Positions 19,289-38,447 are shown, numbered from the stretch's first letter. The stretch is DNA of 64,000 nt from an uncultured Methanosarcinales archaeon (GCA_964429995.1 CAYSDY010000002.1:110361-174360); one strand, 5' to 3'. The notes: generated from the sequence alone by a model not told the origin. Program-made: numbers and translations.

Positions 19289-19310
19289 TTCCATTTTGGG
19301 TATAAAATGA

Positions 19311-20037: not shown

Positions 20038-20122
20038 AATTCTATCTAATTTAACACATTTTATATATTTTTCGCTTTATCTAAGAAGAATTACTTATAA
20101 AGTTTTAAAGATATTAGTATTT

Positions 20123-20434: not shown

Positions 20435-20534
20435 TAGTTTTTTACACATTAACAATATTTATTTCAATTTTTTAATAATTTGGGATAAAAATTGTTAATG
20501 TTATTTATAAAAAACAATCGATTCATAATTAAAA

Positions 20535-21797
20535 ATGATAGAAATAATATTATTAATTGTACTTATTGTGTTAGTTTTATTTTTAATATTTAAGAAAAAT
20601 AATTCTAATTCAAATACAGCAGATGTTGAAAAGTTCTCAGGAATGATTGAAGGTCAACTAAAGACTCAACCAGATTTAGTATCAAGTAAGATTGGAGAAG
20701 TTTTACAAACTAAATTTGGTGAATTTAAGGATAACTTATATAAGAATAATCAAGAACAGGTTAAAGAGTTTGGAGAGCTTAAAACAAATTTAAGTAAATC
20801 ATTAGGAGAAAATACTGAAAAATTAACTTTAGGTTTAAATACATTTAAAGAAACCTTCAAAAAAGATGTTAACAATGATTTTGAGAAACTAAATAAAACT
20901 GTTGAAGATAAATTGGATAAAATATCTAATAAAGTAATGGAAAATTTAAATGATAATTTCGAGAAAACAAATAAAACATTTTTGGATGTTATGAAAAGAT
21001 TAGAAATAATTGATAGCGCACAACAACAAATGCAAAAATTATCTACTGATGTTGTTTCATTAAACGATGTACTAAATGATAAAAAAACAAGAGGGATTTT
21101 TGGTGAAGTTCAATTAAATCAAATATTATATAGAATATTTGGTGAAGGAAATAAAGGAAAAACTTATGATATTCAACATAAATTTGATACTGGTGCTCAA
21201 TCTGATGCAGTTCTATTATTGCCTGAACCATTTAAGAAATTAGCAATTGATTCAAAATTTCCTTTAGAGAATTATAAAAAAAGTTTAGATAAAAGTTTAT
21301 CCTCACAAGAGATTGAACAATATAAAAAATTATTCAAGCAAGATTTAAAAAAACATATTGATGATATTGCATCTAAATATATAATTCAAAGTGAAACAGC
21401 TGATCAAGCTGTTATGTTTTTACCTGCAGAATCAATTTTTGCAGAAATCCAAGCATTTTATGAAGATGTTGTAACATATAGTCAAAAGAAAAGAGTTTGG
21501 TTAGTATCTCCAACTACTCTTATGGCTGTATTAACTTCAATCCAAATAATGTTAAAAGATGCAGAAAGAAGCAAATACACTCAAATTATTCAAGAACAAT
21601 TAATTAAATTATCTGAAGAATTTTCAAGATATAAAATTAGATGGGATAGATTAAGTAAAGATATTGAGAAAGTTAGTAATGATGTAAGAGACATAAATAC
21701 TACAACTACTAAGATTAGTACAAAATTTGAACAAATCTCAAATGTAGAAGTTGAAGATGAAAAATTATTAGAGGAGGTTTTACCTTTATCTAAATAA
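20535..21797 (+). CDS. rmuC: DNA recombination protein RmuC family
   Basis: N-terminal TM, coiled coil, then RGIFGEVQLNQIL, IDSKFP, VMFLPAESIFAE and LVSPTTLMAVL blocks typical of RmuC. Confidence 0.65.
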   Translation: MIEIILLIVLIVLVLFLIFKKNNSNSNTADVEKFSGMIEGQLKTQPDLVSSKIGEVLQTKFGEFKDNLYKNNQEQVKEFGELKTNLSKSLGENTEKLTLGLNTFKETFKKDVNNDFEKLNKTVEDKLDKISNKVMENLNDNFEKTNKTFLDVMKRLEIIDSAQQQMQKLSTDVVSLNDVLNDKKTRGIFGEVQLNQILYRIFGEGNKGKTYDIQHKFDTGAQSDAVLLLPEPFKKLAIDSKFPLENYKKSLDKSLSSQEIEQYKKLFKQDLKKHIDDIASKYIIQSETADQAVMFLPAESIFAEIQAFYEDVVTYSQKKRVWLVSPTTLMAVLTSIQIMLKDAERSKYTQIIQEQLIKLSEEFSRYKIRWDRLSKDIEKVSNDVRDINTTTTKISTKFEQISNVEVEDEKLLEEVLPLSK

Positions 21798-21867: not shown

Positions 21868-23283
21868 ATGAAAAAGTTTGATTTAAATATAGAAAAAGTG
21901 CTAGAAGATTGGGAAGTTTATCATGCAACAAGAGAAATTATTGCTAATGCACTAGATGAACAAGCATTAACAAATTCTTCTGAAATAAAAATTTTTAAAG
22001 AAAATGATAAATGGCATATAAGAGATTTTGGTAGAGGAATAAAATATGAACATTTAACTCAAAATGAATCTGATGAAAAACTTAAATTTCCCGAAAAAGT
22101 AATTGGAAAATTTGGAGTTGGATTGAAAGATGCTTTTGCAACTTTTGATAGGAAAAATATTAAAGTTTTAATAAAATCTAAATATAGTGATATTACTTTA
22201 GGAAAATCTTCCAAAAAGGACTTTGAAGATATCATGACATTACATGCTTTAGTTTCAGTACCATCTAACCCATCCATGAATGGAACAGATTTTATACTTG
22301 ATGGAATTAAGGATGAAGATATTGAATTAGCTAAAGAGTTTTTTTTAAAGTTTTCAAATGAAACAGAGTTAGAAAAAACCCAGTATGGTTCAGTACTGAA
22401 AAAACATTCTACTGGAAAAATTTATATCAATGGTCTAAGAGTTGCTGAAGAAGAGAATTTTCTTTTTTCATATAATATTACTTCTATAACTACAAAAATT
22501 AAAAAGTCTTTAAATAGAGAAAGAACTAATGTAGGAAGGAGTGCTTATACTGATAGAGTTAAATCAATTTTATTAGAATGTGAAGAATTTAAAGTTGCAG
22601 AAACATTAGTTAATGATTTGGAGAAATTTGAATTAGGAGAATCACATGATGAACTTAGTTGGATTGATGTATCAGTTCATGCTTGTAAATTATTAAATTC
22701 AAAAGATAAAGTTATATTTTTAACTCCTTATGATTTGTCAGAAAATCAAACAATGGTAGATAGAGCAAAGAGAGACAATATAAGAATTGTAACTATTCCT
22801 GAGAATGTGAAATATAAAATAAGGGGACAAGAGGATACAGAAGGAAATATAATAAGAGATATTGATGAATATGCTTCTGAATGGAATAATAGTTTTGAAT
22901 TTTCTTTTATAGATGAAAAACTATTATCTAATAATGAAAAAGAAATATTTTCAAAGAAGAATGAGATTTTTGAATTAATTGGGGGGAAACCTAAAAAAAT
23001 TAAAAATATTTTAATTTCAGAAACAATGAGATTAGAATCTCAAGGATATCAGGAAGCAGTTGGATTATGGGAAGAACATGAAGGAAGAATTATTATTAGA
23101 AGAGACCAATTAAGTGATTTAAGTTCCTTTGCAGGAGTTCTTTTGCATGAAACTGCTCATGCTATCTGTGGGTATTCAGATATAACTATTGAATTTGAAA
23201 ACCAATTGACTTCTTTACTTGGAATAATTGCTGAAAAAAAAATAAAAAAATCTTTTTGGAGGATATTCAAAAATGATAACTAA
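21868..23283 (+). CDS. GHKL-type ATPase (MORC/HATPase-like Bergerat fold) fused to C-terminal HExxH metallopeptidase-like domain
   Basis: EIIANALDE (N-box), IRDFGRGI (G1 box), and C-terminal LLHETAHAICG (HExxH, ImmA/IrrE-like). Confidence 0.5.
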   Translation: MKKFDLNIEKVLEDWEVYHATREIIANALDEQALTNSSEIKIFKENDKWHIRDFGRGIKYEHLTQNESDEKLKFPEKVIGKFGVGLKDAFATFDRKNIKVLIKSKYSDITLGKSSKKDFEDIMTLHALVSVPSNPSMNGTDFILDGIKDEDIELAKEFFLKFSNETELEKTQYGSVLKKHSTGKIYINGLRVAEEENFLFSYNITSITTKIKKSLNRERTNVGRSAYTDRVKSILLECEEFKVAETLVNDLEKFELGESHDELSWIDVSVHACKLLNSKDKVIFLTPYDLSENQTMVDRAKRDNIRIVTIPENVKYKIRGQEDTEGNIIRDIDEYASEWNNSFEFSFIDEKLLSNNEKEIFSKKNEIFELIGGKPKKIKNILISETMRLESQGYQEAVGLWEEHEGRIIIRRDQLSDLSSFAGVLLHETAHAICGYSDITIEFENQLTSLLGIIAEKKIKKSFWRIFKNDN

Positions 23284-24691
23284 AGCAAAATCAATTGAAG
23301 AATTATATGAAGAAACAAAAAACTATGACCTAGTTATTACTAATGATGCACCTTTGAATACGGCATTAAACAAAACTGTAAATAAACCAATGCTTGGTTC
23401 TTTTGCTTTGACTTCTAAATTAATTGGTTCCAAATATTCCGATTACTTGTTTGAAGAAGAACAACTAGATTTTCCAGAATTAGTTTTAAAAATTCAAAAA
23501 GAATTCAAAATAAATCTAAAAGAAGCTTTGTACTACATAAAAAATATAATGACTGTTTGGCAACATACAGGAAGTTTAGAAGAAAGTAAAAAATATCTAT
23601 CTAACAAAGAAAAAGATATAGTTAAAGTATTAGAAAAATTACCTACATATCAATTATCTATGCAAAGTATGAATTTAACTTTTTTAGATAAAACTAATAT
23701 CGCAACAATTGGAAAAGAAATTTTTAATGAATTAGATAAAAAAGTTTTAACTCTTCCTACAACTCAAATATCTACATTTACAGATAGAGAACATAAACTT
23801 GATACTATTTATCTTTTTAATTCTCAAAATGAAATTATAAATAGAGTTATTTCTATGATTAACAAAGATAATCAAAATGGAATTGCTATAGTTCTAAATA
23901 TTGAAAGTGATTATTTACCTCTAATTAAAGCAAGATTAATTAACAATGGAATTGAATTAAATGAAAAATTATTCTTATTTCAAGAATTTAGAACAAGAGA
24001 ATACTTGTCCATTATAGAAACATTCTACTCAATGCATAATATTTATACAAAAGAATTAACACCAATTGGAAATATATTTAATATTGATATTGACTCTTCT
24101 TTAGAAAATGCTTTATTTTTAGAATTATGTAAAGTAGATAAGAATGCTCAAAAGTTATTCAACTTATTACAAAATTTGAAAAAGAAAAGCTTCGGTGAAT
24201 TAGTTAAAGAACTTGAAAAGTATGATTTAAGATTACCTAAAGAATTTGTTGATGTTTTGTTTAAATTAGAATTATATAACACTCAAATAACTAAAAATAA
24301 ATTTTTAGAGTTGAAATATTTTATTGAAAATTTTGAACAAGAAATTGAGACAAATAAAATAGGAGTATTATTAATTGATGCAAAGAATTCAACTTATGTT
24401 AATAGAGATATTATTTTTTATTTAGGAATGGATTATTCTTGGACTAAAACAATTGAAGATGCTAAGTATATTGACAAAAAACAAGAACTTGAAAAAAATA
24501 TTAAAAAGTTTGAGATATTAATTCAGCAAGGAAAAGAAAGATTTTTCTTTATCCCAAAATATACTTCTGGAACAGATACAATTCCTCCCTTTTATTTTAA
24601 TTTTATATATGAAACTAATGTCGAAAATATTCTTCTAAGGTTTTTGATATTAAAGAAATTATTAACAAGAAGGAAATACAAGAATTTGTAA
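23273..24691 (+). CDS. Hypothetical protein, probably the N-terminal (inactivated helicase-like) part of an AddB-like protein whose nuclease domain is in the next reading frame
   Basis: 472 aa with no Walker motifs. Its frame ends 2 nt before an open frame that carries the nuclease N-terminal Cys motif, across a T5 homopolymer at 24641..24645. Confidence 0.4.
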   Translation: MITKAKSIEELYEETKNYDLVITNDAPLNTALNKTVNKPMLGSFALTSKLIGSKYSDYLFEEEQLDFPELVLKIQKEFKINLKEALYYIKNIMTVWQHTGSLEESKKYLSNKEKDIVKVLEKLPTYQLSMQSMNLTFLDKTNIATIGKEIFNELDKKVLTLPTTQISTFTDREHKLDTIYLFNSQNEIINRVISMINKDNQNGIAIVLNIESDYLPLIKARLINNGIELNEKLFLFQEFRTREYLSIIETFYSMHNIYTKELTPIGNIFNIDIDSSLENALFLELCKVDKNAQKLFNLLQNLKKKSFGELVKELEKYDLRLPKEFVDVLFKLELYNTQITKNKFLELKYFIENFEQEIETNKIGVLLIDAKNSTYVNRDIIFYLGMDYSWTKTIEDAKYIDKKQELEKNIKKFEILIQQGKERFFFIPKYTSGTDTIPPFYFNFIYETNVENILLRFLILKKLLTRRKYKNL

Positions 24692-24693
24692 AT

Positions 24694-25917
24694 AATCCTG
24701 TAACTAAATCTGCTGAAATAAAAATAAAAGAAACTATTTCAAATACAGCCTTAAACAATTTTTTATTATGTCCAAAAAAATATTCATACTCAACTTTAGT
24801 TTCAAATCTAGATAAAGAAGTATTTTTAAGAGGAAATTTAGTTCATGCATTTGCAGAATTCTATGTTAATAATCAAGAATTTGTAAAAAGTAAAGAGATT
24901 GAAGAATTTGTTGATATTATTATGAATAACTTAAAATTAATGTCTAATCCTTTTCAAAATAGTATTTTAAAAACTAAAATAAGATTTGCATGTATTGCAA
25001 TTGTTGATTTTATTGATAATCTTAAAATTGACGAAAGTCTTAGTTTTGAATCGTTTAAAGAAATTTCTAGAAAGAATGAAGAGAATGTATTTGCAAAGCA
25101 TTATTCTAAATCAATGGATAAACCTAATGCGGAATTAGAGTTCAAAGATAATGAATTAAAATTACATGGACTAATAGATTTAGCAGTAAATCAAGAATTA
25201 ATTATAGATTATAAAACCTCTAAAGATAGGAAAAAAGTAATTGATATTGTAAGAAATGCAAGTTTGAGAAACATTTCAGATAAATGTGATTTTCAACCTT
25301 TAGTTTATCTTTCAATATTTAGGAAAATAACTCCCAATAAAAAAATTCAATTTTGGTATAATTTTCCTATGACAGATATTTATGAAAAGATTGTAGGTAT
25401 TGAATTAGAAGAAGATAATAATGTTAAAGTTCATTATATTCCAACTTCATTTATAGATTATATTGTTTCAAAAGACTTTTATGATTATTTTAACGAAACA
25501 GCTCCAAAATATGCTGAACCGATATTGAGTTTAGTAGAAGATTTCTCTTATTTCAAAGATAAAGAAATCCCCGAAGAATTATTAGAAGAGTCAGATCAAG
25601 TCTCAGAATTATTATTTGAAGATTTTAATCAATATTTGATTTCATTAGGACTTAAAGATAATAAAACAAATAGCGGGAATGTATTAAAAGTTTTAAAAAA
25701 TGTATTTGCATTTAAAGTAGGACAACAATACAAACAAAAAGAAGTTTTCTTTTTCAAAGATGATTTAGATAACTTTGAAGAATATGTAAATCAAAGTATT
25801 AACAAAATGAATGAATACATTAAATCTAATTTCCCTTATGAACCAATAGATGGCGAAAACACTTGTAATAATTGTGATTTCAAAAAGCTATGTTTAAAGA
25901 GGTATGAGGTAAAATAA
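24694..25917 (+). CDS. PD-(D/E)xK nuclease with Fe-S Cys ligands (Cas4/AddB nuclease-domain-like); reading frame open upstream of first ATG (24922), likely frameshifted continuation of 23273..24691
   Basis: Upstream in-frame region has LNNFLLCPKKYSY (N-terminal Cys motif). Core has GLIDLAVNQELIIDYKTSK. C-terminus has CNNCDFKKLC (CX2CX5C). There is no ATG/GTG/TTG between the stop at 24616 and 24922. Confidence 0.5.
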   Translation, partial: NPVTKSAEIKIKETISNTALNNFLLCPKKYSYSTLVSNLDKEVFLRGNLVHAFAEFYVNNQEFVKSKEIEEFVDIIMNNLKLMSNPFQNSILKTKIRFACIAIVDFIDNLKIDESLSFESFKEISRKNEENVFAKHYSKSMDKPNAELEFKDNELKLHGLIDLAVNQELIIDYKTSKDRKKVIDIVRNASLRNISDKCDFQPLVYLSIFRKITPNKKIQFWYNFPMTDIYEKIVGIELEEDNNVKVHYIPTSFIDYIVSKDFYDYFNETAPKYAEPILSLVEDFSYFKDKEIPEELLEESDQVSELLFEDFNQYLISLGLKDNKTNSGNVLKVLKNVFAFKVGQQYKQKEVFFFKDDLDNFEEYVNQSINKMNEYIKSNFPYEPIDGENTCNNCDFKKLCLKRYEVK

Positions 25918-25918
25918 A

Positions 25919-26410
25919 ATGACAATTCAAAAAAAACTTAAAACAATGAATAAGGAAGAGTTAATTTTAGTTATTAATGATTTATTAAAATATAATTCTG
26001 AAAATAGAAAGTATTTAAATTTAAGATTATCTGATGAAATTGATTTTAAAAAATTATCAGAAGAATCAAAAATAAAAATTAAAAATTGTTTTTCAGATTT
26101 TAAAGCAGATATTAGAAGAAGTAAAAAGATACTTAGCGATTATAATAAATTAAATCCTCCTATTGATTTGTATTTAGATTTATTCTTATTCTACTTAGAA
26201 TATGGAATTAAATATGGACAACATAGAGATATGTATTCAAGCTTCTATTATAGCTTTGAAATAATGTTTGAAAAGTTTCTTGATTTAATTAAAAATGATT
26301 CAATTTTAGTTTCAAAGTATAAATCAAAGTTAGAAAAGATTGTTGATAATTCTCAACCAGGTTATGGACATTACGATACTCTTTCAGAATTAATGGAGGT
26401 TATAAAATAA
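25919..26410 (+). CDS. Hypothetical small protein
   Basis: 163 aa, with 1-nt gaps to both neighbours. Confidence 0.4.
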   Translation: MTIQKKLKTMNKEELILVINDLLKYNSENRKYLNLRLSDEIDFKKLSEESKIKIKNCFSDFKADIRRSKKILSDYNKLNPPIDLYLDLFLFYLEYGIKYGQHRDMYSSFYYSFEIMFEKFLDLIKNDSILVSKYKSKLEKIVDNSQPGYGHYDTLSELMEVIK

Positions 26411-26411
26411 A

Positions 26412-29243
26412 ATGGGAGCAAATACAAAACAAGATGCAGTAATTAAAAGTACAGATGGAATTTATATTGTAGATGCAGGAGCAGGAACGGGTAAGACATA
26501 TTCAATTACACAGAGATATTTAGAAATATTAAACAAAGGAGTTAATCCTAAAGATATTTTTTTAGTTACATTTACCAGAAATGCATCAACTCATATGAAG
26601 GAAAAAGTAATTTCTAAAGCTGATCCAAAAATAGCAACAGAGATAATAGATGCTCCAATACAAAACTTTGATTCTTTTTGTTTTAAAATTGTTTCAAAAT
26701 ATGGTTTGAATGCACCAAAGATATTAGGAATTGAAGATAATCTTTCAGGATATAAATTAATATCTCAGTCAGTTATACAAAAAAGAATATTTAATAAATT
26801 CTTTAATCAATTCTTAGAAGATAATCAAGATAAATATCAAAAATTATTAGTTTCAATATCAAATCAATTAGAAATACATTCTTTAATTGAGACATTATTA
26901 TCTAAAGGGATTTATCCTACAAAAACAGGATGGTTTTTAGATGCTGAAGATAAACTTAAAGGAGATTATAAATTATTTGCAGAACATTTTAATAAAATAA
27001 ATGAACCTGGAATTGGTGCTAAAGGACCAACTCAATCAGATTTATTAAGTAAGATGAAAACTAGGATTTCATCTAAAAGCTTTTTAGATATACCTGAGAC
27101 TATAGAAACTGAAAAACAAGTAAATCCTAAGTTGATAGATGATATATTTTATGATGATAGGGGAGAAATTATTGAATTTATTCATCATGTATTTATTGAT
27201 TACATTGAATATATGATTAAAGAAAATTCTATGACATTTTCATTAATTGCTATGTTTGCATTTTTAATTTTGTATAATGAAGATGAAGTAAGAAATATTA
27301 ATTCATTCGATTATATTATGGTTGATGAATTTCAAGATACTAATGAAATGCAATTTATGTTAATTCTTCTTTTATTAAAGAAACCTAATCTTTGCGCTGT
27401 TGGTGATTGGAAACAAGGTATTTATGGATTTAGAAATGCTACAATAAGTAATATTAGAGAGTTCAATACTAAGATTGAAAGATATAAAAATCAGTTAAAC
27501 AAAGAAAAGATAAGAATTTCATTTGATGTTTCTCAAATAACACCTCTTGATTTTGATGTAAATTATAGAAGTTCTCAAAAAATTTTAACTTTTTCTGAAA
27601 GGAGTTTAATTACAAAAGCAAGTAAGAATGAAACTATTGATATAGAAGATATTCAAAAAGATATTGTTTCCTTGAAAAGTAATTTTGAATATGATGAATG
27701 TAGTGAGATTAAGTACTATGAAGCAATTGACAAAGAAACTGAAATTAATTATATATTAGAAAAGATTCAAAATTTAGTAGGCAAGAAGACAATAAAATAT
27801 TTTGATTCAGAGATAAAAGAGTACAAAGAAAGATTTATTGATTTTAATGACATTGTAATTCTTTCAAGAACTAGGACTTTTGGCTTAGAAGTTCAAAAAA
27901 AAGCTAACGAATATAATATTCCTGCAGTTTATGAAGGAGGAATTAAACTATTTGAAGAAGAACCTTCAATTTTGCTTCTTGCTTGGTTAAAACTTTTATT
28001 ATATAAAAATAAAAGAGAAGCATGGATACCAATTCTTGAAAAAGAAAGTTATTCATATGCTCAGATTAAATATATTCTAGATAATAAAGAGTATCCTAAA
28101 GAGATTCTTGAATTTAGAGAACATTTGTTGAAAAATAGAAAGATAATAAACTATATTATTGATGAAATATTGAAAAGATATAATTTTACAGGTCCAGTTT
28201 CAAATGCAATGCTCAATATTTTAGATCAAATATTCCATTCAACTTTGATGTCAATAAGTGATTTAATTGTGTTCATTGAAGAAAATATTGAAAATGGGGA
28301 AACATACAATATTGAAATGGAAGGCTCGACTAATTCAATTAAAATTCAAACAATACATGGTTCAAAAGGATTAGAATATCCTATTGTGTTTGTTGTTAAT
28401 TGTAATCTTTCGAATTTCCCAAGTACAATCTCGGATAGTAACTCTTTAACATTTAACGAGATAGTAGGAATAAGAAATAAGAAGTTTTATTCTACTGAAC
28501 ATGAGTTTGTATTTGATAATTGGAAAACTGAACTTGCAAACATGGGATTATTTTCAGATATGGATGAAGAAAGAAGATTATTGTATGTTGCAATAACTAG
28601 AGCAATGTATGATGTTTATTTTACAGCTCACAGACCCTCCGAATTCTTCAATGAACTTTCAGGAGAAGAAAAAGAAGTTATTGAAGAGACTAAGATTGAA
28701 AAATTAAATTTAGTTGAAAAGCAAGAATCATCGACACTAAAAATTAATACTGTTATTGAGGCTAAAAATAAAGTACTAGGTGTTCATGATTTAATGAATT
28801 TTAAAGAGGGACAAAAAGGAAGAGGTATGGAATTTGGAACGATTATACATAAGCTTGCATTTAGATATATTAAAGGATTAAAGATAAGTTCTATTGATAA
28901 TGAATTTAAGCAAGACTTTGAGAATATTAAATCTTTTGTTGATACTGAGTTGAAATATGGGAAGCTTATGCCTGAGATTGATTGTTCTTTACCTATTGAT
29001 GGAACTTTAATTAGAGGAATAATAGATTTAGTTGTAGAGTTTGATAATAGAATTGAGATAATTGATTGGAAAACTGATTTAGTAAAAGATAATATTGAAG
29101 AATATTCTAAGCAATTATCTATTTATTATTATGTATTGAAGGCTATTTATCCTGATAAAGAGATTGTTTGTAAAATCTTTTGGACTTGTAAGGCGCAAGT
29201 TGATGTAGTTAAAGTTGTTGAATTAGGGGTGGTGATAGAGTAA
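26412..29243 (+). CDS. UvrD/PcrA-like SF1 helicase with C-terminal PD-(D/E)xK nuclease domain (AddA/RecB-like)
   Basis: VDAGAGTGKTYS (motif I), VDEFQDTN (motif II), IHGSKGLEYPIVFVV and LLYVAITRA (V/VI). C-terminal GIIDLVVEFDNRIEIIDWKTD is the nuclease motif. Confidence 0.8.
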   Translation: MGANTKQDAVIKSTDGIYIVDAGAGTGKTYSITQRYLEILNKGVNPKDIFLVTFTRNASTHMKEKVISKADPKIATEIIDAPIQNFDSFCFKIVSKYGLNAPKILGIEDNLSGYKLISQSVIQKRIFNKFFNQFLEDNQDKYQKLLVSISNQLEIHSLIETLLSKGIYPTKTGWFLDAEDKLKGDYKLFAEHFNKINEPGIGAKGPTQSDLLSKMKTRISSKSFLDIPETIETEKQVNPKLIDDIFYDDRGEIIEFIHHVFIDYIEYMIKENSMTFSLIAMFAFLILYNEDEVRNINSFDYIMVDEFQDTNEMQFMLILLLLKKPNLCAVGDWKQGIYGFRNATISNIREFNTKIERYKNQLNKEKIRISFDVSQITPLDFDVNYRSSQKILTFSERSLITKASKNETIDIEDIQKDIVSLKSNFEYDECSEIKYYEAIDKETEINYILEKIQNLVGKKTIKYFDSEIKEYKERFIDFNDIVILSRTRTFGLEVQKKANEYNIPAVYEGGIKLFEEEPSILLLAWLKLLLYKNKREAWIPILEKESYSYAQIKYILDNKEYPKEILEFREHLLKNRKIINYIIDEILKRYNFTGPVSNAMLNILDQIFHSTLMSISDLIVFIEENIENGETYNIEMEGSTNSIKIQTIHGSKGLEYPIVFVVNCNLSNFPSTISDSNSLTFNEIVGIRNKKFYSTEHEFVFDNWKTELANMGLFSDMDEERRLLYVAITRAMYDVYFTAHRPSEFFNELSGEEKEVIEETKIEKLNLVEKQESSTLKINTVIEAKNKVLGVHDLMNFKEGQKGRGMEFGTIIHKLAFRYIKGLKISSIDNEFKQDFENIKSFVDTELKYGKLMPEIDCSLPIDGTLIRGIIDLVVEFDNRIEIIDWKTDLVKDNIEEYSKQLSIYYYVLKAIYPDKEIVCKIFWTCKAQVDVVKVVELGVVIE

Positions 29244-29244
29244 G

Positions 29245-30693
29245 ATGATTGACTATAATAAAATAGAAACTATATTACAAACTTCAAAAGCTTTTGAGTT
29301 AATCAGAGTAAAGAATTTGCCTGAAATTCTTTCATTTTTATATAAAGAATTTAAGGAAGATAGTAATAGTACTTTAAAGTATGAAGAAGCCATAACTAAA
29401 CTTTCTAATTATTTAGATATATTGGAAAGTGAAAATGAAAATGATTTTTTAATTAGTAATTTTGAAAAAGCAAGAAAAGTATTAGACAAATGGTGTAAAA
29501 AAGAATTTTTGGTAAGGACTGAAGATTCTAAAGGTAATTGGAATATTTCTTTAACTCCTGAAACTAATAAAGTTATCTTGTGGATTGAAGATTTAGAAGA
29601 AAAAGATTTTATAGGTACTGAATCAAGGTTTCAACTTATATTTAATCAACTAAAAGATATAATTGAAAAAAGTACTTTAGATCCTGTTGAAAGAATAAAA
29701 CAATTAGAAGAAAGAAAAACTGAAATAGAAATAGAAATTCAAAATGTAAAAAATGGAATAATAAATCCTGTTGAGAATTATTTAATTCAAGAGATGTATG
29801 AAAATGTATTAAAAAATGCTAGAAGTTTAGTTTCTGATTTTTCAGAAGTTGAAAAAAATTTTAAAGAAATTATAAGTAAAATATATGAAGACCAAATTAG
29901 TCAAAAATATTCTAAAGGTTCAATTGTTATTAATACTTTTAATTCATTGGAAGCATTAAAAGAAAAAGATCAAGGAAAAAGTTTCTATGGATTTTGGCAA
30001 ATTTTATTTAATCAAAATGGTTCATCTCAATTAGATAAGTTAATTGGAGAAGTTCATTTAATTTTAGATGACAAGAAAATAAAAAATAAAGATTTCTTTT
30101 TAGAAGATCTTAGATTTCAATTACATGAAGCAGGGAAGAAAGTAATTGCTACAAATATTCTTTTAGCCGAAAGATTAAATAGGTTAGTAAACAACGAAAA
30201 TTTAAAAGAAAGTAAAAAAATATTTGAGACAATTAATGAGATTAAAAAATTAATGATTCAAAATGTTAATAATTCAAATAATATAAATAATTTAATGTGT
30301 ATAGAATTAAATCCTGAATTTAATTTTCCATTTGAAAGAAATCTTTTAGAATTAAGTTTTAAATCAAATATTAAAGAAATTATTTTACCTGAAATTAAAA
30401 TTAATCTGGAAGATATAAGTGAATTATTTTCATATGTTCCTGTAAATGAAACTGAGTTAAAAAATAGAATATTGGAACAAATAAAGGATAATAAAGAAAT
30501 TTCATTAGGGGAATTAACAAAGAATATCCCTATAGAGAAAGGAGTTGAAGAAATTTTAAAATATTATAGTTTAGCTTTAAATGATTTACAAAAGTTTTCA
30601 AATATTGATAATATTAATAAGGAGATAATTACTTTTGATTATAATAAACAAATAGGGTTAGAGGTACCTAAAATTATATTTACTAAAAATTAA
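29245..30693 (+). CDS. jetA: Wadjet JetA-like (MksF-like kleisin-type) protein
   Basis: 482 aa. It is the first of four overlapping genes whose sizes and order (482/196/1131/384 aa) match JetA/B/C/D. It has a coiled-coil middle and no catalytic motifs, as expected. Confidence 0.5.
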   Translation: MIDYNKIETILQTSKAFELIRVKNLPEILSFLYKEFKEDSNSTLKYEEAITKLSNYLDILESENENDFLISNFEKARKVLDKWCKKEFLVRTEDSKGNWNISLTPETNKVILWIEDLEEKDFIGTESRFQLIFNQLKDIIEKSTLDPVERIKQLEERKTEIEIEIQNVKNGIINPVENYLIQEMYENVLKNARSLVSDFSEVEKNFKEIISKIYEDQISQKYSKGSIVINTFNSLEALKEKDQGKSFYGFWQILFNQNGSSQLDKLIGEVHLILDDKKIKNKDFFLEDLRFQLHEAGKKVIATNILLAERLNRLVNNENLKESKKIFETINEIKKLMIQNVNNSNNINNLMCIELNPEFNFPFERNLLELSFKSNIKEIILPEIKINLEDISELFSYVPVNETELKNRILEQIKDNKEISLGELTKNIPIEKGVEEILKYYSLALNDLQKFSNIDNINKEIITFDYNKQIGLEVPKIIFTKN

Positions 30694-30694
30694 A

Positions 30695-31285
30695 ATGGAA
30701 AATAATGATACTAATTATGATGAAAAATCTATATATTCTGAAACTCTAATAAAATTACTTAAAGGTATTTTGTATAATGATGATGTTAATGCCTGGGATA
30801 ATTTAAGAATTTTTCAAAAAGATATAAGAAATTATTTTTTAAAAATAAATCTTGAATTAATTATTGATGAAGATAAAGGTTTTGCTTTTTTAAAACAAAT
30901 TGAAAATGATGAAAATAAAAATAATTTGCCAAAATTAATTAATAAAACTTCTTTAGGCTATGATTTAACTTGTTTTTTAGTAATATTGAGAGAATGGTTA
31001 GAAGATTTTAAGAAAAATTCAGCAAATTTATCAACTTTATATATTTCTGAAGAAGATATAAAGGAAAGAATCGAGTATTTTTTTAAACATAATACTGATG
31101 GTTTGCAATTAATTAAAAGAATTAAACATTTAATAAAAGAAACAATAAAATTAGGATTTATAAAAGAAATTAATAATTCAATAGAATTAAAATATGAAGT
31201 AAAAAGAAGTCTAGAAGCTAAAGTCAATGTTGATTTTCTAGAAAATTTTAAGGAGGAATTAGAGAAGAATGGAACTGAAAATTAA
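30695..31285 (+). CDS. jetB: Wadjet JetB-like (MksE-like) protein
   Basis: 196-aa acidic protein. N-terminal LIKLLKGILYNDDVNAWDNL...EDKGFAFLKQ resembles the conserved JetB/DUF4194 block. 1-nt gap to jetA and overlap with jetC. Confidence 0.5.
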   Translation: MENNDTNYDEKSIYSETLIKLLKGILYNDDVNAWDNLRIFQKDIRNYFLKINLELIIDEDKGFAFLKQIENDENKNNLPKLINKTSLGYDLTCFLVILREWLEDFKKNSANLSTLYISEEDIKERIEYFFKHNTDGLQLIKRIKHLIKETIKLGFIKEINNSIELKYEVKRSLEAKVNVDFLENFKEELEKNGTEN

Positions 31286-34200
31286 AGAATATGATGATTC
31301 CATTAGTGGTTTCAGATTAAATTTTATTGAAGTATATAATTGGGGTTTATTTCATGGAAATGTTCAAAGAATTAATCCTAATAGTAAAAGTTCAATTTTA
31401 TTGGGAGAAAATGGAGCAGGTAAGACAACATTAGTAGATGCAATTCAAACTATATTAGTTCCAAACAAATTAAGAGCATATAATCAATCTTCAGGAGCAG
31501 AGAATAAAAAAGATAGAAATGAGATTACATATATTCAAGGAAAATATGGAGAAATTAAAAATAATGAAACTGATAATAGTATAACTGAACAGTTTCTAAG
31601 AACTGAAAAAGGTGAGATATATTCTGTACTTCTGGCTTCTTTCTCAAATTTAGATAAAAAAGAAATATATACTTTAATTCAAATATTATGGTTTGGAAAA
31701 AATGGAATAAAAAAATTATATATTGTTTCAAATAAAGAATTAACTATTGATAATGATATTAGACCTTTTAATAATGATGCTAAATGGAGAAGAGATTTTC
31801 AAAAAGAATATGAGAAAAATCTAGTTTTATTTGAATTAGATAACTCTGGAAAATATTTTCATTTAATTCAAAAAATATTTGGATTAAGATCTGAAAAAGC
31901 TTTGAGTTTATTTTCAAAAACTATAGGAATAAAAGTTTTAGGTAGTCTAGATGAATTTATTAAGAATGAAATGATTGAAGATTATAACACAGAAGAAGAA
32001 TTTAGAGAATTGCATAAACATTATTTATCTTTATTATCTATTCATAAATCTATTCAAAAAGCGAAAAAACAAATTCTATTGTTAAAACCAATATTTGAAG
32101 AAAATAATGAACTTGAAAAAATAAATACTGAATTAAATAAAGTTCTTTTAATTGAAGAAAATATTGAACTATATTTTCAAAAGATTAAACTGGCAAAATT
32201 AATTGAAAATTCTGAATTAATAAATAAAGAAATTGTTAAAATTAAAATAGAGGTTAATAATATTATAGAAAGAATTAATAAATTTAAATTAAAAGAAAAA
32301 GAATTAGAAACAATGATTAATTCAGATGAACAAGGCAAATTAATAATTAATATTGATTCTCGAATTGAGAGTTTAAAAATAGAACAAAAAAAAGTACATT
32401 TTAAACATCAATCTTATATAGAACTTTGTGATCTTGTTGGAATAAATATTAATAATCTAAATGAAGAAAAATTTATTATTAATAATAATAAAATAAAACA
32501 AGAAATTGTTTTAGTAAATTCAGAATATGAGAAGAAAAAAGAAGAATGGGCTGATAAAAGAAATGAAGTTGAAAATTTAAGTACAAATATTAAAGATATT
32601 AGTGAAGAATTAAGTTCATTAGAAAACAGAAAAAACAAAATTGATTATAATTTGATAAAAGTTAGACATAAAATAATAACAGAATTAGGATTAAAAGAAT
32701 TAGAAATACCATTTGTTGGAGAATTAATTAAAGTAAAAGATTCGGAAAAAGATTGGGAGAAAGCAATTGAAATTGCATTAAGAAGTTTTGCTTTAAAACT
32801 AATAGTTCCTGAGAAACATTATTCAAAAGTAAATAAATATATAAAAACAACATTTTTAAACGAAAAAATTTCATATTACAAAGTTAATGATAATTTTATA
32901 ACTAATATTGAAGAACATGATAAAACTAAGTTTTTAATAAATAAAGTTGAAATCAAGGATGATACGCAATATTTTAATTGGATAAAATATAATATTTCTA
33001 GATACTATAATTACATTTGTACTGAAAATTTAGAAGAATTTGAGAAAGAGGATAAGGCAATAACTAAAGAAGGATTATTAAGAGATTATAATAAACATCA
33101 AAAAGATGACCGTAAAAATTTATTTGATAAAAGTAAATTTATATTGGGATGGAATAATGAAGATTTACTTAAAATTAAAAAAAACGAATTAGAATTTATA
33201 CGGAACCAACAAAAATTATTGAAAAGTGAAGAAATTGATTTTAAGAATCAATTATTAGCATTGGAAAATAAAAAAGAAACATTAAACGATTTAATTAAAT
33301 ATGATAATTATGAAATAGTTGATTTTAATTCAATTCTTATTGAGATTAGTAATTTAGAAAAAAATAAATTAAAAGTACAAAAGAATAATTCGAAAATAGA
33401 TGATTTTCAAAATCAATTAGAAAAAACTAAAGAAAAAATTGAAATAAATGATAAAAATAGAATAGATAAATTAAGTAAACAAAAGAACTTTGAAGATAAT
33501 TTAAATTTAATAAATGAAAAAATTGAATCAATTAAAATAATAGTTGAAAATTCTAAGTTAAATTTTGATATAGAAAAACTAATTGAAGAATTTTTAGAGA
33601 TTAATATTCTCAATTGGAATTTAAATAATTTTGAATCAAATCAAAGATTTGAAGAAAAGAAAATACAGCATTTAAAAGAAAAATTAAGAGAAGAAATAGA
33701 TAATAAATCTAAAAAAATTTTAGAATTAATGTCTGAATATAGAAATCCTAAAGATCAAAAAATACATGAGGATTTTCCAGAATGGATTGGTGAAAATAGT
33801 TTTCTTTCGATTAAAGTTGATTATTTATATGAATATATTGATAAATATAAAAAAATTGAATGTGAAGAATTGCCTGATGCAGAAGAACAATTTGAGAGAA
33901 TATTTGAAGAATCTATAATCTTTAAAATGGCTGATTTTCAAGAAGAATTGGAAAAAAGAAGAAAAAAAATAATAGAGAGTATTAGAGAATTAAATTTATC
34001 ATTAGAAAAAATAGATTTTACTTCATTTCCACAAACTTATATTAAAATAAATGAAGAGACAACCAACAATGAGTATATAAAAAAATTTAGAGAAGAACTT
34101 AGAGATTGGAAACCTAATGCAGGAGGTTTAAGTAGAGGTTACAATAAAGATGCATATGAAGAAAGCTTTAATAAAATTAAAATGTTAATAAATAAATTAT

Positions 34201-34664
34201 CAACTAATGATAATTATAGAAAATTTGTTATGAATGTTAAAAATTGGTTTACATTTTCAGTAAATGAATATTGTAGAGATGATAATTATTTAAGAAGGGT
34301 ATATCAAAGTACTAGTGAACTTTCAGGAGGAGAGAAAGCTCAATTAACATATGCAATATTAGGAGCTTCATTATCATATCAATTTAACATTGAGAAAGGT
34401 ATTAAATCTCAAAATTCATTTCGTTTTGTAATAGTAGATGAAGCATTTAGTAAACTTGATAATATTAAATCTAAATATTTGATGGAATTAATTAAAAAAT
34501 TACATTTACAAGTTTTAATAGTTACTCCTAATGAAAAGATGCATGTCGCTCAAGATTATGTTCAAAATGTTCATTATATAAATAAAAATGATAATATTTC
34601 CACTATAATGAATATGCCATATATTGAATTTGATAAATTAATAAATAAAAATGAAAATCTCTGA
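31269..34664 (+). CDS. jetC: Wadjet JetC-like SMC-family ATPase (MksB-like)
   Basis: N-terminal LLGENGAGKTTL (Walker A). About 800 aa of K/E-rich coiled coil. C-terminal LSGGEKAQLTYAILGA (ABC signature) and FRFVIVDEAFSKLD (Walker B). Confidence 0.75.
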   Translation: MELKIKEYDDSISGFRLNFIEVYNWGLFHGNVQRINPNSKSSILLGENGAGKTTLVDAIQTILVPNKLRAYNQSSGAENKKDRNEITYIQGKYGEIKNNETDNSITEQFLRTEKGEIYSVLLASFSNLDKKEIYTLIQILWFGKNGIKKLYIVSNKELTIDNDIRPFNNDAKWRRDFQKEYEKNLVLFELDNSGKYFHLIQKIFGLRSEKALSLFSKTIGIKVLGSLDEFIKNEMIEDYNTEEEFRELHKHYLSLLSIHKSIQKAKKQILLLKPIFEENNELEKINTELNKVLLIEENIELYFQKIKLAKLIENSELINKEIVKIKIEVNNIIERINKFKLKEKELETMINSDEQGKLIINIDSRIESLKIEQKKVHFKHQSYIELCDLVGININNLNEEKFIINNNKIKQEIVLVNSEYEKKKEEWADKRNEVENLSTNIKDISEELSSLENRKNKIDYNLIKVRHKIITELGLKELEIPFVGELIKVKDSEKDWEKAIEIALRSFALKLIVPEKHYSKVNKYIKTTFLNEKISYYKVNDNFITNIEEHDKTKFLINKVEIKDDTQYFNWIKYNISRYYNYICTENLEEFEKEDKAITKEGLLRDYNKHQKDDRKNLFDKSKFILGWNNEDLLKIKKNELEFIRNQQKLLKSEEIDFKNQLLALENKKETLNDLIKYDNYEIVDFNSILIEISNLEKNKLKVQKNNSKIDDFQNQLEKTKEKIEINDKNRIDKLSKQKNFEDNLNLINEKIESIKIIVENSKLNFDIEKLIEEFLEINILNWNLNNFESNQRFEEKKIQHLKEKLREEIDNKSKKILELMSEYRNPKDQKIHEDFPEWIGENSFLSIKVDYLYEYIDKYKKIECEELPDAEEQFERIFEESIIFKMADFQEELEKRRKKIIESIRELNLSLEKIDFTSFPQTYIKINEETTNNEYIKKFREELRDWKPNAGGLSRGYNKDAYEESFNKIKMLINKLSTNDNYRKFVMNVKNWFTFSVNEYCRDDNYLRRVYQSTSELSGGEKAQLTYAILGASLSYQFNIEKGIKSQNSFRFVIVDEAFSKLDNIKSKYLMELIKKLHLQVLIVTPNEKMHVAQDYVQNVHYINKNDNISTIMNMPYIEFDKLINKNENL

Positions 34665-35805
34665 GAAAATAATTAATACTAGTAAGAATAAATATTTGGA
34701 CTTTTTAAAAAGTATTATATTAAAAGATGAGAATTTTTTCCCATTAAGATTAAGAATAAAATTGCCACATCCAAAAAATAATTATTTAGAATTTTATGAG
34801 ACAATGAAGGAAATAAATTCCAAATCAAAAGAATCAATAAAATATGGTTATTTAATTTCTTTTAATCCTGGAATAAAAACTAGAGATGCAGGGACTCAAG
34901 ATATTCCTAATTCAGTTTTTTTTGAATCTGAAAAAGATTATTTATCATTTTTAAATAAAGAACAGGAAGTTAATCAATTTAAAAAAGATTTTAAGTTAAT
35001 TTTAACAAAGTATCCTGAATTGAAATCATGGATTGAAAGATTTCCAATTAAAATAATTAATTCAGCAGGATTATGGCATGATATATTGAAGGTCTGTGAT
35101 TATTTTTATTTGAACCCTAAACCTAATTTATATATTAGGGAATTGCCAATACAAGTTCATACTAAATTTATTGAAAATAATGAAGCAATAATTAGAGAAT
35201 TGTTAGACATATTAATTAGTAATGAAATTAACTCTTTAGAATTTGATTTTAAAAAAAGATTTAACTTAAAGTATGATCAATTTTTAATCAGAGTTAAAGT
35301 TTTGGATAAGAACATACTTTTGAAAAATAATTTGAATAACTCTTTTTTAGATTTTAGTTTACCACTAGATTTATTTGAGAAATTAAATTTAAATGTTGAT
35401 AAAGTATTTATTGTTGAAAATAAGATGAATTTTTTAACTTTCCCAAATATTGAAAATTCAATAATCATATCAGGTTCAGGGAATGGAGTCAATATTTTAA
35501 AGAATTCTTCTTGGCTTAATGAAAAACAAATTTATTATTGGGGTGATATAGATTCTCATGGTTTTGCAATTCTTTCAAGTTTTAAAAAATATTTCTCAAA
35601 TATAAAATCATTATTTATGGATTTTAAAACATATGATACATTTAAAGAGTTTGAAGTAAAAGGAGAAAAAACAGTTCAAGAAACTTTTTCTAATTTAACT
35701 GATGAAGAATTAAAAGTATTTAATTATGTTCATAGTAATAATTTAAGATTAGAGCAAGAAAGAATTTCTCAAGAATATATTATTAATAATTTGAAAAATG
35801 AATAA
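34651..35805 (+). CDS. jetD: Wadjet JetD-like protein with C-terminal Toprim domain (MksG-like)
   Basis: 384 aa. VFIVENKMNF (Toprim Glu) and YYWGDIDSHGFAI (DxD) lie in the C-terminal half. Overlaps jetC by 14 nt. Confidence 0.6.
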   Translation: MKISEKIINTSKNKYLDFLKSIILKDENFFPLRLRIKLPHPKNNYLEFYETMKEINSKSKESIKYGYLISFNPGIKTRDAGTQDIPNSVFFESEKDYLSFLNKEQEVNQFKKDFKLILTKYPELKSWIERFPIKIINSAGLWHDILKVCDYFYLNPKPNLYIRELPIQVHTKFIENNEAIIRELLDILISNEINSLEFDFKKRFNLKYDQFLIRVKVLDKNILLKNNLNNSFLDFSLPLDLFEKLNLNVDKVFIVENKMNFLTFPNIENSIIISGSGNGVNILKNSSWLNEKQIYYWGDIDSHGFAILSSFKKYFSNIKSLFMDFKTYDTFKEFEVKGEKTVQETFSNLTDEELKVFNYVHSNNLRLEQERISQEYIINNLKNE

Positions 35806-36958
35806 ACAACAACTATACCTAAAAAAGATTGAAAATGATGTTAATGAGAAAATATATGATTTGTTAATTCAACATCTAAAAGATGTTCATAAAGTACTTC
35901 CTAGAACTGATGATAATAAAGATTATTTAAGAGAGTTAAATAAACATCTATTCAAAGCATTAGAAGATTTAAAACAAACAAATAGATTTAACTACTTACA
36001 AAACTATAGACACTCAATTCTTATTATAAATACTATTCTTAGCTATAAACCTGATGAGAAACATCTAAAAGAAGTTAAGCTTTCAATATTAAATAGATTT
36101 TCCTCAGATATTATTTACGATAAAAAAGAGAAGATTCCATTAAAGTCTCAAATGACTGAACTTAGAATTACTTATGATACTAGCTATTTAATCTATCTTT
36201 TAGAAAAAGTTTTCATACCAAAAGAGATGTGGGATAAGGCAATGTATTGTTTAATTGCAATAGAATTAGTAGAACCAGATCATAACGATATTGATAAATT
36301 TAAAGAAATAATCACAAAACATCTAAAAAAAGAAGAATTAAAATATAAAGAATTTGAAGAACCTAAAGACTATATTATTCTTTTAGATACAAATATTATT
36401 TTAAATAAAGTATTATATGATGTTGGAGAATATAAAATATCTCATAACAAATTAGAAGAGTATAACTCTTTGATGGAAAAATGGGGAAATAACAATAAGT
36501 TTGTAATAACTAACTCTATAAAAGAAGAGTTAGACAAACAAATTAAATTTTCAATTGATACAGTAAACGATGTTTGTTCTAAGTTTAAACATTTTAATAA
36601 AAATGAAATTATTACAACACTTGAAAAGAGGTTTAATAATTTAATAAAAAAATATGCAATTGCAATAGAAGATAAACAATATGATTTAACAAATATTGAA
36701 AAATTCTACTCAAATTACTTAGGAAACTTATATGAAATAACTTTAGATAAAATCGAAAACAAGAAGTTATCTAAAAAATTAAAAAAACTCTCAGATAGGG
36801 AAGGTTTGCTTCCAGAAATAGGAGATCTGAAACTTTTAGCAGATGCAATTGAACTTAAGAAATCTAATTCAAAGGTAGCAATACTTTCAAATGATAAAGA
36901 CTTGTATTTATTTAATGAACAATTAGAAAAAGAATTTGGAATAAGAATTTACAAATAG
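35798..36958 (+). CDS. PIN-domain nuclease with long N-terminal helical extension, translationally coupled to jetD
   Basis: C-terminal domain has YIILLDTNIIL, KEELD, LLADAIE and LSNDKDL, the four acidic positions of PIN domains. Its ATG overlaps the jetD stop by 8 nt. Confidence 0.55.
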   Translation: MNKQQLYLKKIENDVNEKIYDLLIQHLKDVHKVLPRTDDNKDYLRELNKHLFKALEDLKQTNRFNYLQNYRHSILIINTILSYKPDEKHLKEVKLSILNRFSSDIIYDKKEKIPLKSQMTELRITYDTSYLIYLLEKVFIPKEMWDKAMYCLIAIELVEPDHNDIDKFKEIITKHLKKEELKYKEFEEPKDYIILLDTNIILNKVLYDVGEYKISHNKLEEYNSLMEKWGNNNKFVITNSIKEELDKQIKFSIDTVNDVCSKFKHFNKNEIITTLEKRFNNLIKKYAIAIEDKQYDLTNIEKFYSNYLGNLYEITLDKIENKKLSKKLKKLSDREGLLPEIGDLKLLADAIELKKSNSKVAILSNDKDLYLFNEQLEKEFGIRIYK

Positions 36959-37282: not shown

Positions 37283-38203
37283 TCAATGTTTAATCACCTC
37301 TAACACTTTTTCATATTCTTTTACTGCAATCTCTTTTTTGTTTAAATAATGAGTCATTCCAACATTTTTTGAAGTTGACCTTCCAGATATGAAGTTTGCT
37401 ATTTCAATTGCAACTCCTGCTTTAACCATTAAAGTAAATGAATACTTTCTTAGATATTTTAAATGAACTATTTTCTTATTATCTTGAGTATGATCTACAA
37501 ATCTATTGAAGTATGTTTTATCAAATTTGCCAATATGTTTTTTTAATTCATTATATAATTCTAATGTGAAGAATAAATAATAAGATGATTTCTGACCTCT
37601 TAAATAGAAATTATTGTAAGTAACTATGCCGTTTTCATGTATTTCTATGTTTTTTTCATCAAAATTTTCAAAGAAATGTTTAACTTCTGTTGTCCTAGCT
37701 GTTGTTTCAATATAGAATCTATATAATAAATAATGTAATCGATCATACTTAGAGACTTCTTTTACAGAGTTTTTAATTTCCAAACATGTTGGAATATAAG
37801 TATCAATATGAACTTCATTGTGAATTTTAATTCTTCTTCGGATATTTTCAATTATATCTAAGTCTAATATATCAAACTCTTCTAAGTAATTCAGCCATAC
37901 TCTAATTGCAACTCCTCCTTGTCTTTTGTTAATTTTTTCAAGAGCAATAGCATTTTTAATCTCTTCAATAGTATTAACACCAATCTCTTCAAACAATTTA
38001 GTTAGACAATTAAAAACAGATACTGCGTAAGTTCTTGTGAACTTTTTTAAAGTATATACTTTATATTCATTTTTTGTCTTAAAGTATATACTTTTTAATT
38101 TTATAAAATTTTGATTTTTTGGCGTAAAATTTTCTAGATTTCGAGAAATTTGCTGTTGATTAGAAATTTGAGAGGAGGCGTATTTGCCCCCTAGAGACGC
38201 CAA
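37283..38203 (-). CDS. int: Tyrosine recombinase / integrase (second paralog); reading frame is open through the adjacent tRNA-Ser gene, start undefined
   Basis: C-terminal RKYSFTLMVKAG...GRSTSKNVGMTHYLN (H..R...Y) and IETTARTTEV (R). The ORF track's longest frame (37283..38326) begins at a TTG inside the tRNA duplicate and reads through the tRNA. There is no ATG/GTG/TTG downstream of the tRNA until about residue 98. Relative to int 10821, the protein lacks about 60 N-terminal residues. Confidence 0.65.
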   Translation of the reverse strand: MASLGGKYASSQISNQQQISRNLENFTPKNQNFIKLKSIYFKTKNEYKVYTLKKFTRTYAVSVFNCLTKLFEEIGVNTIEEIKNAIALEKINKRQGGVAIRVWLNYLEEFDILDLDIIENIRRRIKIHNEVHIDTYIPTCLEIKNSVKEVSKYDRLHYLLYRFYIETTARTTEVKHFFENFDEKNIEIHENGIVTYNNFYLRGQKSSYYLFFTLELYNELKKHIGKFDKTYFNRFVDHTQDNKKIVHLKYLRKYSFTLMVKAGVAIEIANFISGRSTSKNVGMTHYLNKKEIAVKEYEKVLEVIKH

Positions 38204-38279
38204 GACAGGGATTTGAACCCTGAATTCCGAAGGAACTACATTAGCAGTGTAGCGCAATACCGAGTTATGCGATCTTGGC
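38198..38279 (-). tRNA. tRNA-Ser (anticodon GCU), no encoded CCA
   Basis: Minus-strand sequence gccaaga..ctaca-ctGCTaa-tgtag, long variable arm ttccttcggaatt, T-arm cagggttcaaatccctg, acceptor tcttggc plus discriminator g. The 7-bp acceptor and 5-bp anticodon stems pair perfectly. Confidence 0.8.
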
Positions 38280-38308
38280 ATTAGGTCTCTTTTTTTAGTC
38301 GCCGCCGG

Positions 38309-38348
38309 ATTAGCAGTGCTGCGCAATACCGAGTTATGCGACCTTGGC
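38309..38348 (-). repeat. Tandem partial duplicate of tRNA-Ser 5-prime half (acceptor/D-arm/anticodon loop, ~40 nt, 3 mismatches)
   Basis: Reads gccaaggtcgcataactcggtattgcgcagcactgctaat on the minus strand, versus gccaagatcgcataactcggtattgcgctacactgctaat in the tRNA. It lies 29 nt upstream of the tRNA 5-prime end. It is a likely att remnant. Confidence 0.55.
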
Positions 38349-38447
38349 TTTATAATATTTGTTTATAGTATTTCATTTATAATATTTTTGTTTTTGTTTT
38401 ATGGATAAATCTAAAGTTTTATAAATGAGATTTATTTTCCTTTTATT

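Follow-up and report, generated by a model that had tools for sequence, protein, structure and literature searches.

A 64,000-nt stretch of contig CAYSDY010000002.1 (GCA_964429995.1, 110361-174360; the window) carries ten open reading frames (ORFs) on one strand between positions 21868 and 36958. This gene train contains an AddAB-like helicase-nuclease pair and the four genes of a Wadjet system, together with a GHKL ATPase gene, a gene for a 163-aa protein and a PIN-like gene. The original prediction had proposed a translationally coupled train and had left two readings: a composite system of Wadjet with the AddAB-like and PIN proteins, or stacked systems. Our analysis indicated that the train is not a new composite machine; more probably, independent modules have been stacked within an island that integrase genes delimit. 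The genes are as follows.

21868-23283, + strand: solo GHKL (Hsp90/MutL/MORC-like) ATPase with a C-terminal HExxH motif, MPN635_N, 471 aa (HATPase_c_3, 3e-05; PF25856)
23273-25917, + strand: AddB-like protein, a degenerate helicase-like N part followed by a Cas4/AddB-type PD-(D/E)xK nuclease with four Cys (two ORFs, 23273-24691 and 24922-25917)
25919-26410, + strand: DUF6155-like gene, 163 aa, at the AddB/AddA junction
26412-29243, + strand: AddA-like helicase of superfamily 1A (SF1A; UvrD/PcrA-type) with a C-terminal RecB-type PD-(D/E)xK nuclease, 943 aa
29245-30693, + strand: JetA, kleisin, DUF3375 (PF11855, 3e-81; PADLOC JetA1, 3.9e-105, full length)
30695-31285, + strand: JetB, KITE protein, DUF4194/MksE (PF13835, 1.2e-30; PADLOC JetB1, 3.5e-50)
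31269-34664, + strand: JetC, SMC-like ATPase (PADLOC JetC1, 2.1e-267, full length)
34651-35805, + strand: JetD, DUF3322 N-domain and Toprim nuclease (JetD_C, 1e-42; DUF3322, 2.5e-34; PADLOC JetD1, 7e-133)
35798-36958, + strand: PIN-like protein, an N-terminal helical-repeat part and a C-terminal VapC-like PIN domain, 386 aa

The ORFs were joined by overlaps or 1-nt gaps, except at one place. The GHKL ORF overlapped the N-terminal AddB-like ORF by 11 nt, and JetB/JetC, JetC/JetD and JetD/PIN-like overlapped by 17, 14 and 8 nt, respectively. Gaps of 1 nt separated the C-terminal AddB-like ORF from the 163-aa gene, the latter from the helicase gene, the helicase gene from JetA, and JetA from JetB. 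The exception was a 230-nt gap between the two AddB-like ORFs (24691 to 24922). Most internal starts were preceded by a Shine-Dalgarno-like GGAGG/GAGGT, which lay inside the 3' end of the upstream gene. The predicted train of coupled junctions was thus confirmed by the ORF and junction listing, and the predicted gene-by-gene annotation was upheld by domain, profile and motif matches.

The train is likely to be co-transcribed. A scan for sigma-70 promoters, whose consensus is bacterial while the host is archaeal, gave 138 sites against 145 expected, and a scan for hairpin terminators gave 1 terminator-like site against 1.9 expected.

The four Jet proteins matched the PADLOC type I models over their full length, with E values from 1e-50 to 1e-267. 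JetC contained a Walker A motif (GENGAGKT), a signature motif (LSGGEK) and a Walker B motif (VIVDEAF). In the alignment of JetD to MksG (8b7f), the Toprim glutamate (IVEN) and the DxD motif (GDID) were conserved; 8q72 and 7til (JetD) were also matched. These genes form a complete, canonical type I Wadjet system with intact catalytic motifs. All four genes stand in the canonical order of the known type I systems (JetABCD / MksBEFG / EptABCD). The operon differs from these in its host, a very low-GC and probably DPANN archaeon, and in being wedged between unrelated modules with no intergenic spacers.

The AddA-like protein matched the Pfam families UvrD-helicase (1.5e-47), UvrD_C (2.8e-32) and PDDEXK_1 (1.1e-07), and its helicase had all the motif residues that are invariant in the family. 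Searched against the PDB, its profile matched PcrA, UvrD1, AddA, AdnB and RecB. The matches to the NCBIfam models for AddA, RecB and PRK13909 were far below the cut-offs, and because of these low scores against the AddA/RecB equivalogs the protein is called AddA-like and not an AddA orthologue. In the family, of about 945 aa, 813 matches had E<1e-30; they were 35-47% identical along their entire length. They came from haloarchaea, one Methanococcus maripaludis strain, Nanohaloarchaea, Thermoplasmata, Ignavibacteria, Bacteroidota and Poribacteria.

The C part of the AddB-like protein matched PDDEXK_1 and Cas4. In the alignment, its nuclease showed D...DxK, QxxxY and four Cys (in LCPKKY and CNNCDFKKLC). 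At the position equivalent to Walker A it reads DAPLNTAL, with no GKT. Residues 341-699 were aligned by hhalign with the end of the 2A domain and the nuclease of the AddA-like family at 92.6% probability. Neither the single sequence nor the family profile matched AddB among the PDB sequences, no AddB match was obtained in NCBIfam, and the N part matched nothing meaningful in PHROG, PADLOC and NCBIfam.

As in AddAB of the Bacillus and epsilonproteobacterial types, the addB-like gene comes first and the addA-like gene second, and the two are translationally coupled. The AddA-like subunit is likewise an SF1A helicase with a RecB nuclease. The AddB-like subunit has a PD-(D/E)xK nuclease with the Cas4/AddB-type four-Cys pattern, and its N part may be a degenerate helicase remnant. 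Unlike AddAB, the pair is compact (subunits of about 945 and 865 aa), its AddB-like family has no sequence-level match to AddB in the two databases, and it is mostly archaeal, plasmid-borne and multi-copy. The name 'AddAB-like' appears to be a fair description of the architecture, and no claim of orthology is made.

The distribution of the pair was followed in two ways. A genome scan with the helicase family yielded 80 loci, on which tblastn was run with all window proteins. Separately, ORFs from 81 loci (79 of the genome loci plus the metagenomic loci L090 and L091) were clustered all-against-all. The tblastn search placed an AddB-like gene, its N and C parts in one frame, just before the helicase gene at almost every one of the 80 genome loci. 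In the clustering, the AddB-like family (median 862 aa) was present in 77 of the 81 loci, next to the helicase on its upstream side, and it was the only family besides the helicase itself (81) that recurred. The next real neighbours appeared in no more than 9 of the 81; these were Orc1/Cdc6, ParA and integrase, which belong to the backbone of plasmids and mobile elements. At most loci the stop of the AddB-like gene overlapped the start of the helicase gene by 4 nt, which hints at a protein complex. We interpreted the pair as a self-contained two-gene module.

None of the 80 genome loci gave a tblastn match to the GHKL, 163-aa, JetA-D, PIN-like or RmuC proteins of the window. Jet genes were also absent at three closer metagenomic loci (L090, L091 and L101). 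These closer relatives, with 70-79% helicase identity, showed three different contexts for the next gene. The pair of L090 was followed by nothing on the same strand, and that of L101 by a gene for a 643-aa protein. In L091 (1-13647, DPANN-like), McrBC lay upstream and a type V-A set, Cas12a-Cas4-Cas1-Cas2, downstream, with overlaps or gaps of at most 26 nt. Among the loci compared, Wadjet stood beside the pair in the window lineage only.

In the haloarchaeal loci (L012-L089) the pair was often plasmid-borne and present more than once; Haloglomus halophilum, for instance, has three copies and Halobium salinum two. Genes for Orc1/Cdc6, ParA and integrase were close by, which suggests that mobile replicons carry the pair. 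A scan of viral contigs with the helicase profile found no true member of the family, only distant UvrD-like helicases with partial matches, mostly of 20-35% identity (best E 2e-20).

A related architecture is on record. The available sections of Hudaiberdiev et al. (2017, PMC5704561) propose that fusions of the UvrD-Cas4 type are ancillary to several defence systems, often with type III restriction-modification (RM). These fusions resemble the AddA-like protein in combining UvrD with PDDEXK_1, in occurring in bacteria and mesophilic archaea, and in standing among defence genes that vary from locus to locus, type III RM being one of them; in the window, a type III RM system lies 4.6 kb upstream. 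They differ in that those sections describe no AddB-like partner, which was found here at 77 of the 81 loci, the two sets being compared by description only.

The AddB-like gene of the window is broken. Its nuclease frame is open from 24622, and contains no start codon before 24922. Alignment to an intact 880-aa paralogue placed the break at about 24627-24631, where one A had been lost from an A5 run. At this site GAA-AAA-TAT had become GAAAATAT, and the reading frames switch there. The two proteins were 80-83% identical throughout. The first cysteine of the putative Fe-S cluster (LCPKKY) lies within the stretch without a start codon, and the 331-aa ORF alone would therefore lack it. The gene had been described as apparently frameshifted, and this 1-nt loss relative to the paralogue accounted for it.

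Split AddB products were present on four contigs (NCBI, JGI and ENA). A variant from another sample (P0272), more than 90% identical, reads straight through the break. The ratio of nonsynonymous to synonymous substitution rates (dN/dS) against the paralogue was 0.12-0.17 for both AddB halves and for the helicase, which marks the lesion as recent. Programmed frameshifting at the break was considered and rejected: the site, GAAAAT, contains neither a heptamer of the form X XXY YYZ nor an extended run of A, and both the paralogue and the variant are intact.

The paralogue is part of a second, intact pair (880 and 961 aa) of the same genome, located at 7357-12886 of L090. This locus overlaps the start of the window at a constant offset of 16,348 nt. 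The intact pair thus corresponds to window coordinates of about -8991 to -3462, 3.5-9 kb before position 1, and lies about 25 kb upstream in the genome. It is 79-83% identical to the window copy, and has neither Wadjet nor the 163-aa gene alongside.

The 163-aa protein had no direct match in Pfam, PADLOC, NCBIfam or PHROG. Of its 253 representative homologues, 35 were compared with PF19652 (DUF6155) and 26 matched, and we interpreted the gene as a diverged member of DUF6155. Besides being unmatched at the 80 genome loci, it was not called between the two genes of the pair in L090, L091 or L101; in other loci, where there is an AddB-like gene, it runs up to the start of the helicase gene or overlaps it. 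At each of its two junctions (25908-25921 and 26401-26414) the 163-aa gene has AAAATAAAATG, which is also the single AddB/AddA junction of the paralogue. Its absence from other loci and the repetition of the ancestral AAAATAAAATG at both ends identify the gene as a lineage-specific insertion, placed exactly where the two genes are coupled, by which the stop-N-start motif was duplicated.

The GHKL protein had the motifs of the Bergerat fold (ExxxNxxD, DxGxG and GxxGxG), and its fold matched Hsp90, MutL and MORC. Among 41 sequences, N27, D53xGxG, G80xxGxG and H427-E-x-x-H431 were invariant, as was E444 downstream of the HExxH. The matches of the fold search were dominated by the ATPase domain and included none to a peptidase. 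The family is very large and exceptionally well conserved: more than 4,600 matches were obtained, with 60-80% identity across archaeal and bacterial phyla, and the homologues P0151-P0270 span DPANN, Methanomicrobia, Bathyarchaeia, Chloroflexi and Zixibacteria. The protein also matches phrog_6077. In the two other contexts examined, the gene was solo, convergent with SbcCD-like or BREX genes, and the AddB-like gene was in neither.

The PIN-like family is small (30 matches). Its members have a PIN fold with conserved acidic residues: D197 and N199 are invariant, E244, E340 and D343 are present in at least 90% of the sequences, and an SNDKD motif occurs in most full-length members. Some homologues carry PF16289 (PIN_12). 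Scans of the protein against PHROG, PADLOC and NCBIfam gave nothing meaningful. It differs from VapC-type PIN toxins in that the PIN domain is fused to a conserved helical N-domain of 190 aa. Characterised VapC toxins are RNases, not DNases. The locus differs from VapBC in that no VapB-like antitoxin gene lies upstream, where JetD is found instead; upstream of the homologues was a 109-aa gene, a 39-aa gene, a helicase gene, or nothing.

Wadjet was present in none of the five other contexts of the PIN-like gene. In two of them it was solo, once with NYN, Fic and type I RM genes around it and once following NUDIX genes. In another it came after a DISARM-like operon, overlapping it by 8 nt just as it overlaps JetD here, and in the remaining two it followed different UvrD-PDDEXK proteins. 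The gene may thus act as a floating accessory, or by itself in abortive infection.

The PIN-like gene was recurrently the last of defence-type operons (10001-11152 in L007, 10001-11164 in L099, 10001-11164 in L006, and the window). A partnership with one family of helicase-nucleases was considered and rejected, because the upstream UvrD-nucleases in L006 and L099 resemble one another, and the helicase of the window, at the level of motifs only.

The packing of the train was compared with that of its surroundings. Outside the train, 9 of 23 same-strand junctions (about 39%) were of 2 nt or less. Since tight junctions are this common in the genome, the unbroken run of eight in the train is longer than typical but not extraordinary. 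On the related contig L091, McrBC, the AddAB-like pair and Cas12a-Cas4-Cas1-Cas2 are packed as tightly. Dense packing, though above average here, is a property of these genomes. The GC content differs between the modules of the train, ranging from 0.21 to 0.31.

The train makes up the right half of an island of 27 kb, at about 10.8-38.3 kb, that holds defence and mobile-element genes, is bracketed by integrases and lies beside a tRNA-Ser. The other features of the island are as follows.

10821-11948, + strand: second archaeal integrase, probable left edge of the island (Phage_integr_3, 2.2e-24)
13954-16500: type III RM Mod
16472-19288: type III RM Res
within 12006-21797: SNase-like gene, 103 aa
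20535-21797: RmuC
37283-38326, - strand: archaeal integrase, right edge of the island (Phage_integr_3; PHROG integrase, 2.7e-31)
38196-38280, - strand: tRNA-Ser(GCT)

The right integrase lies about 325 nt past the end of the train, and its ORF reads into the tRNA, as those of SSV-type integrases do. The 5' half of the tRNA is duplicated (44 nt) at 38309-38352, 25 nt past the tRNA-Ser. No distal attachment-site repeat of the tRNA-Ser or of the flank of the left integrase was found in the window beyond this adjacent half-tRNA duplicate. The two integrases are 32% identical and of the same family. The upstream half of the island (12006-21797) holds a RhuM-like gene, the type III RM system, a gene for a 214-aa protein on the - strand, the SNase-like gene and RmuC.

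The GC content of the window is about 25%. The flanking genes are archaeal (eIF2-gamma, an archaeal CCA-adding enzyme, a Wyosine_form radical-SAM enzyme and aS21). Several island proteins had their nearest named homologues in Woesearchaeota and Nanoarchaeia; the host is therefore probably a low-GC DPANN archaeon of the Woesearchaeota or Nanoarchaeia type. Elsewhere in the window, a 109-nt direct repeat of 76% identity (40441-40549 and 45670-45778) encloses a 5.2-kb segment with a gene for a 963-aa protein, a 233-aa gene and the CCA-adding enzyme, and a 709-aa ORF (59778-61907) encodes a phosphoglycerate kinase fused to a PfkB-family sugar kinase.

Every non-Wadjet component of the train occurs elsewhere without Wadjet and without the others, and we read the train as a stack for this reason. 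Independently mobile modules would have been stacked head to tail, and would probably be expressed from one or a few polycistronic transcripts. The first would be the solo GHKL-HExxH gene. The second would be the AddAB-type helicase-nuclease pair, in which the AddB-like gene recently lost one base and the DUF6155-like gene was inserted at the coupling junction. The third would be the type I Wadjet, in which, by homology, JetABC would extrude DNA loops and recognise small circular DNA, and the Toprim domain of JetD would cut it. The fourth would be the floating VapC-like PIN protein, which elsewhere is solo or follows other defence operons. Each module is predicted to be active in its own right, and the modules would be functionally independent.

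Several points weigh against stacking. The tblastn queries were of low GC and may miss highly divergent Jet genes in the high-GC haloarchaea; the ORF clustering, though, found no recurrent neighbour either. The neighbourhoods were surveyed from the non-Wadjet genes, and the nearest plasmid-borne JetD found by tblastn (Ralstonia, Streptomyces and similar) was only 26% identical. A JetA scan of JGI metagenome contigs matched patterns and confirmed no relative. The samples of contexts were small, five loci for the PIN-like gene and two for the GHKL gene. Five consecutive junctions between modules do not exceed 1 nt, which is closer spacing than the genome average given above; this is what a single operon would show, and co-expression may have been selected. 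To our knowledge, archaea in general lack RecBCD. Since DNA cut by JetABCD is degraded by RecBCD in vitro (Liu et al. 2022, bioRxiv 10.1101/2022.10.04.510915), a helicase-nuclease beside Wadjet would be biochemically sensible in an archaeon. In one obligate machine, Wadjet would linearise plasmids, the AddAB-like pair would degrade them, and the PIN-like and GHKL proteins would be a further effector or regulator. In its favour are the RecBCD result, the coupling-type junctions that run unbroken across all the modules, and the presence of the same arrangement in several assemblies of this lineage. Such a machine would be a new type of Wadjet, with an arm of its own for degradation. However, a check set beforehand on the co-occurrence of AddAB-like or PIN genes with jetABCD found Jet genes at 0 of 80 pair loci and Wadjet in 0 of 5 PIN-like contexts, and no co-occurrence was seen outside this lineage. 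Moreover, the AddB-like gene is frameshifted here with an intact pair elsewhere in the genome, the 163-aa gene is a lineage-specific insertion, and the PIN domain is of the type found in VapC RNases. We consider one obligate machine very improbable. The composite of the original prediction found no recurrent association behind it in the neighbourhood surveys, and its alternative of stacked systems agreed with the modular distribution elsewhere.

A looser synergy would make the AddAB-like pair a portable clean-up module beside interchangeable DNA cutters (Wadjet, McrBC with Cas12a, or type III RM), where, in archaea that otherwise lack RecBCD/AddAB, it would destroy the linear fragments of cut invader DNA or feed CRISPR adaptation. 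Its partners would differ from place to place, while its position beside them would be functional. The PIN-like gene would then perhaps be a portable auxiliary module as well, and the seamless fusion of the operon here would be selected and not incidental. This would accord with the defence contexts of the pair in DPANN-like relatives and here (type III RM, RmuC and Wadjet), with the ancillary role proposed for UvrD-Cas4-type fusions in the available sections of PMC5704561, and with the in vitro action of RecBCD on Jet-cut DNA. We consider it unlikely, as the recurring neighbours in haloarchaea are Orc1/Cdc6, ParA and integrase and not defence genes, and the copy beside Wadjet is the broken one. 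Somewhat less doubtful, though still not favoured, is that the pair is a horizontally acquired enzyme for double-strand-break repair, serving housekeeping or the maintenance of mobile elements, with an accidental adjacency to Wadjet and a decaying duplicate in the window. The AddA/RecB-type architecture and the addB-addA order fit such a role, as do the paralogous pair in the same genome, of which the window copy alone carries a frameshift, and the plasmid-backbone neighbours in haloarchaea. Its patchy, multi-copy, plasmid-borne distribution is unlike that of a core repair gene; the dN/dS values indicate selection on both copies until recently, and the window copy has an intact variant in another sample. 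The stack of independent modules remains the reading that we prefer.

With the composite unsupported, the region is an ordinary, if unusually compact, defence island. It also carries a caution: in small, dense genomes, 1-nt or overlapping junctions alone are no proof of functional coupling. The analysis documents that an archaeon, probably of DPANN, has a complete type I Wadjet, and flags two unexplored families in defence islands, the helical and VapC-like PIN proteins and the highly conserved GHKL-HExxH (MPN635_N) proteins. It further delineates a widespread AddB-like/AddA-like module, which occurs in haloarchaea, DPANN, Thermoplasmata, Ignavibacteria and Bacteroidota, and of which, as a pair, we found no description in the literature searched.

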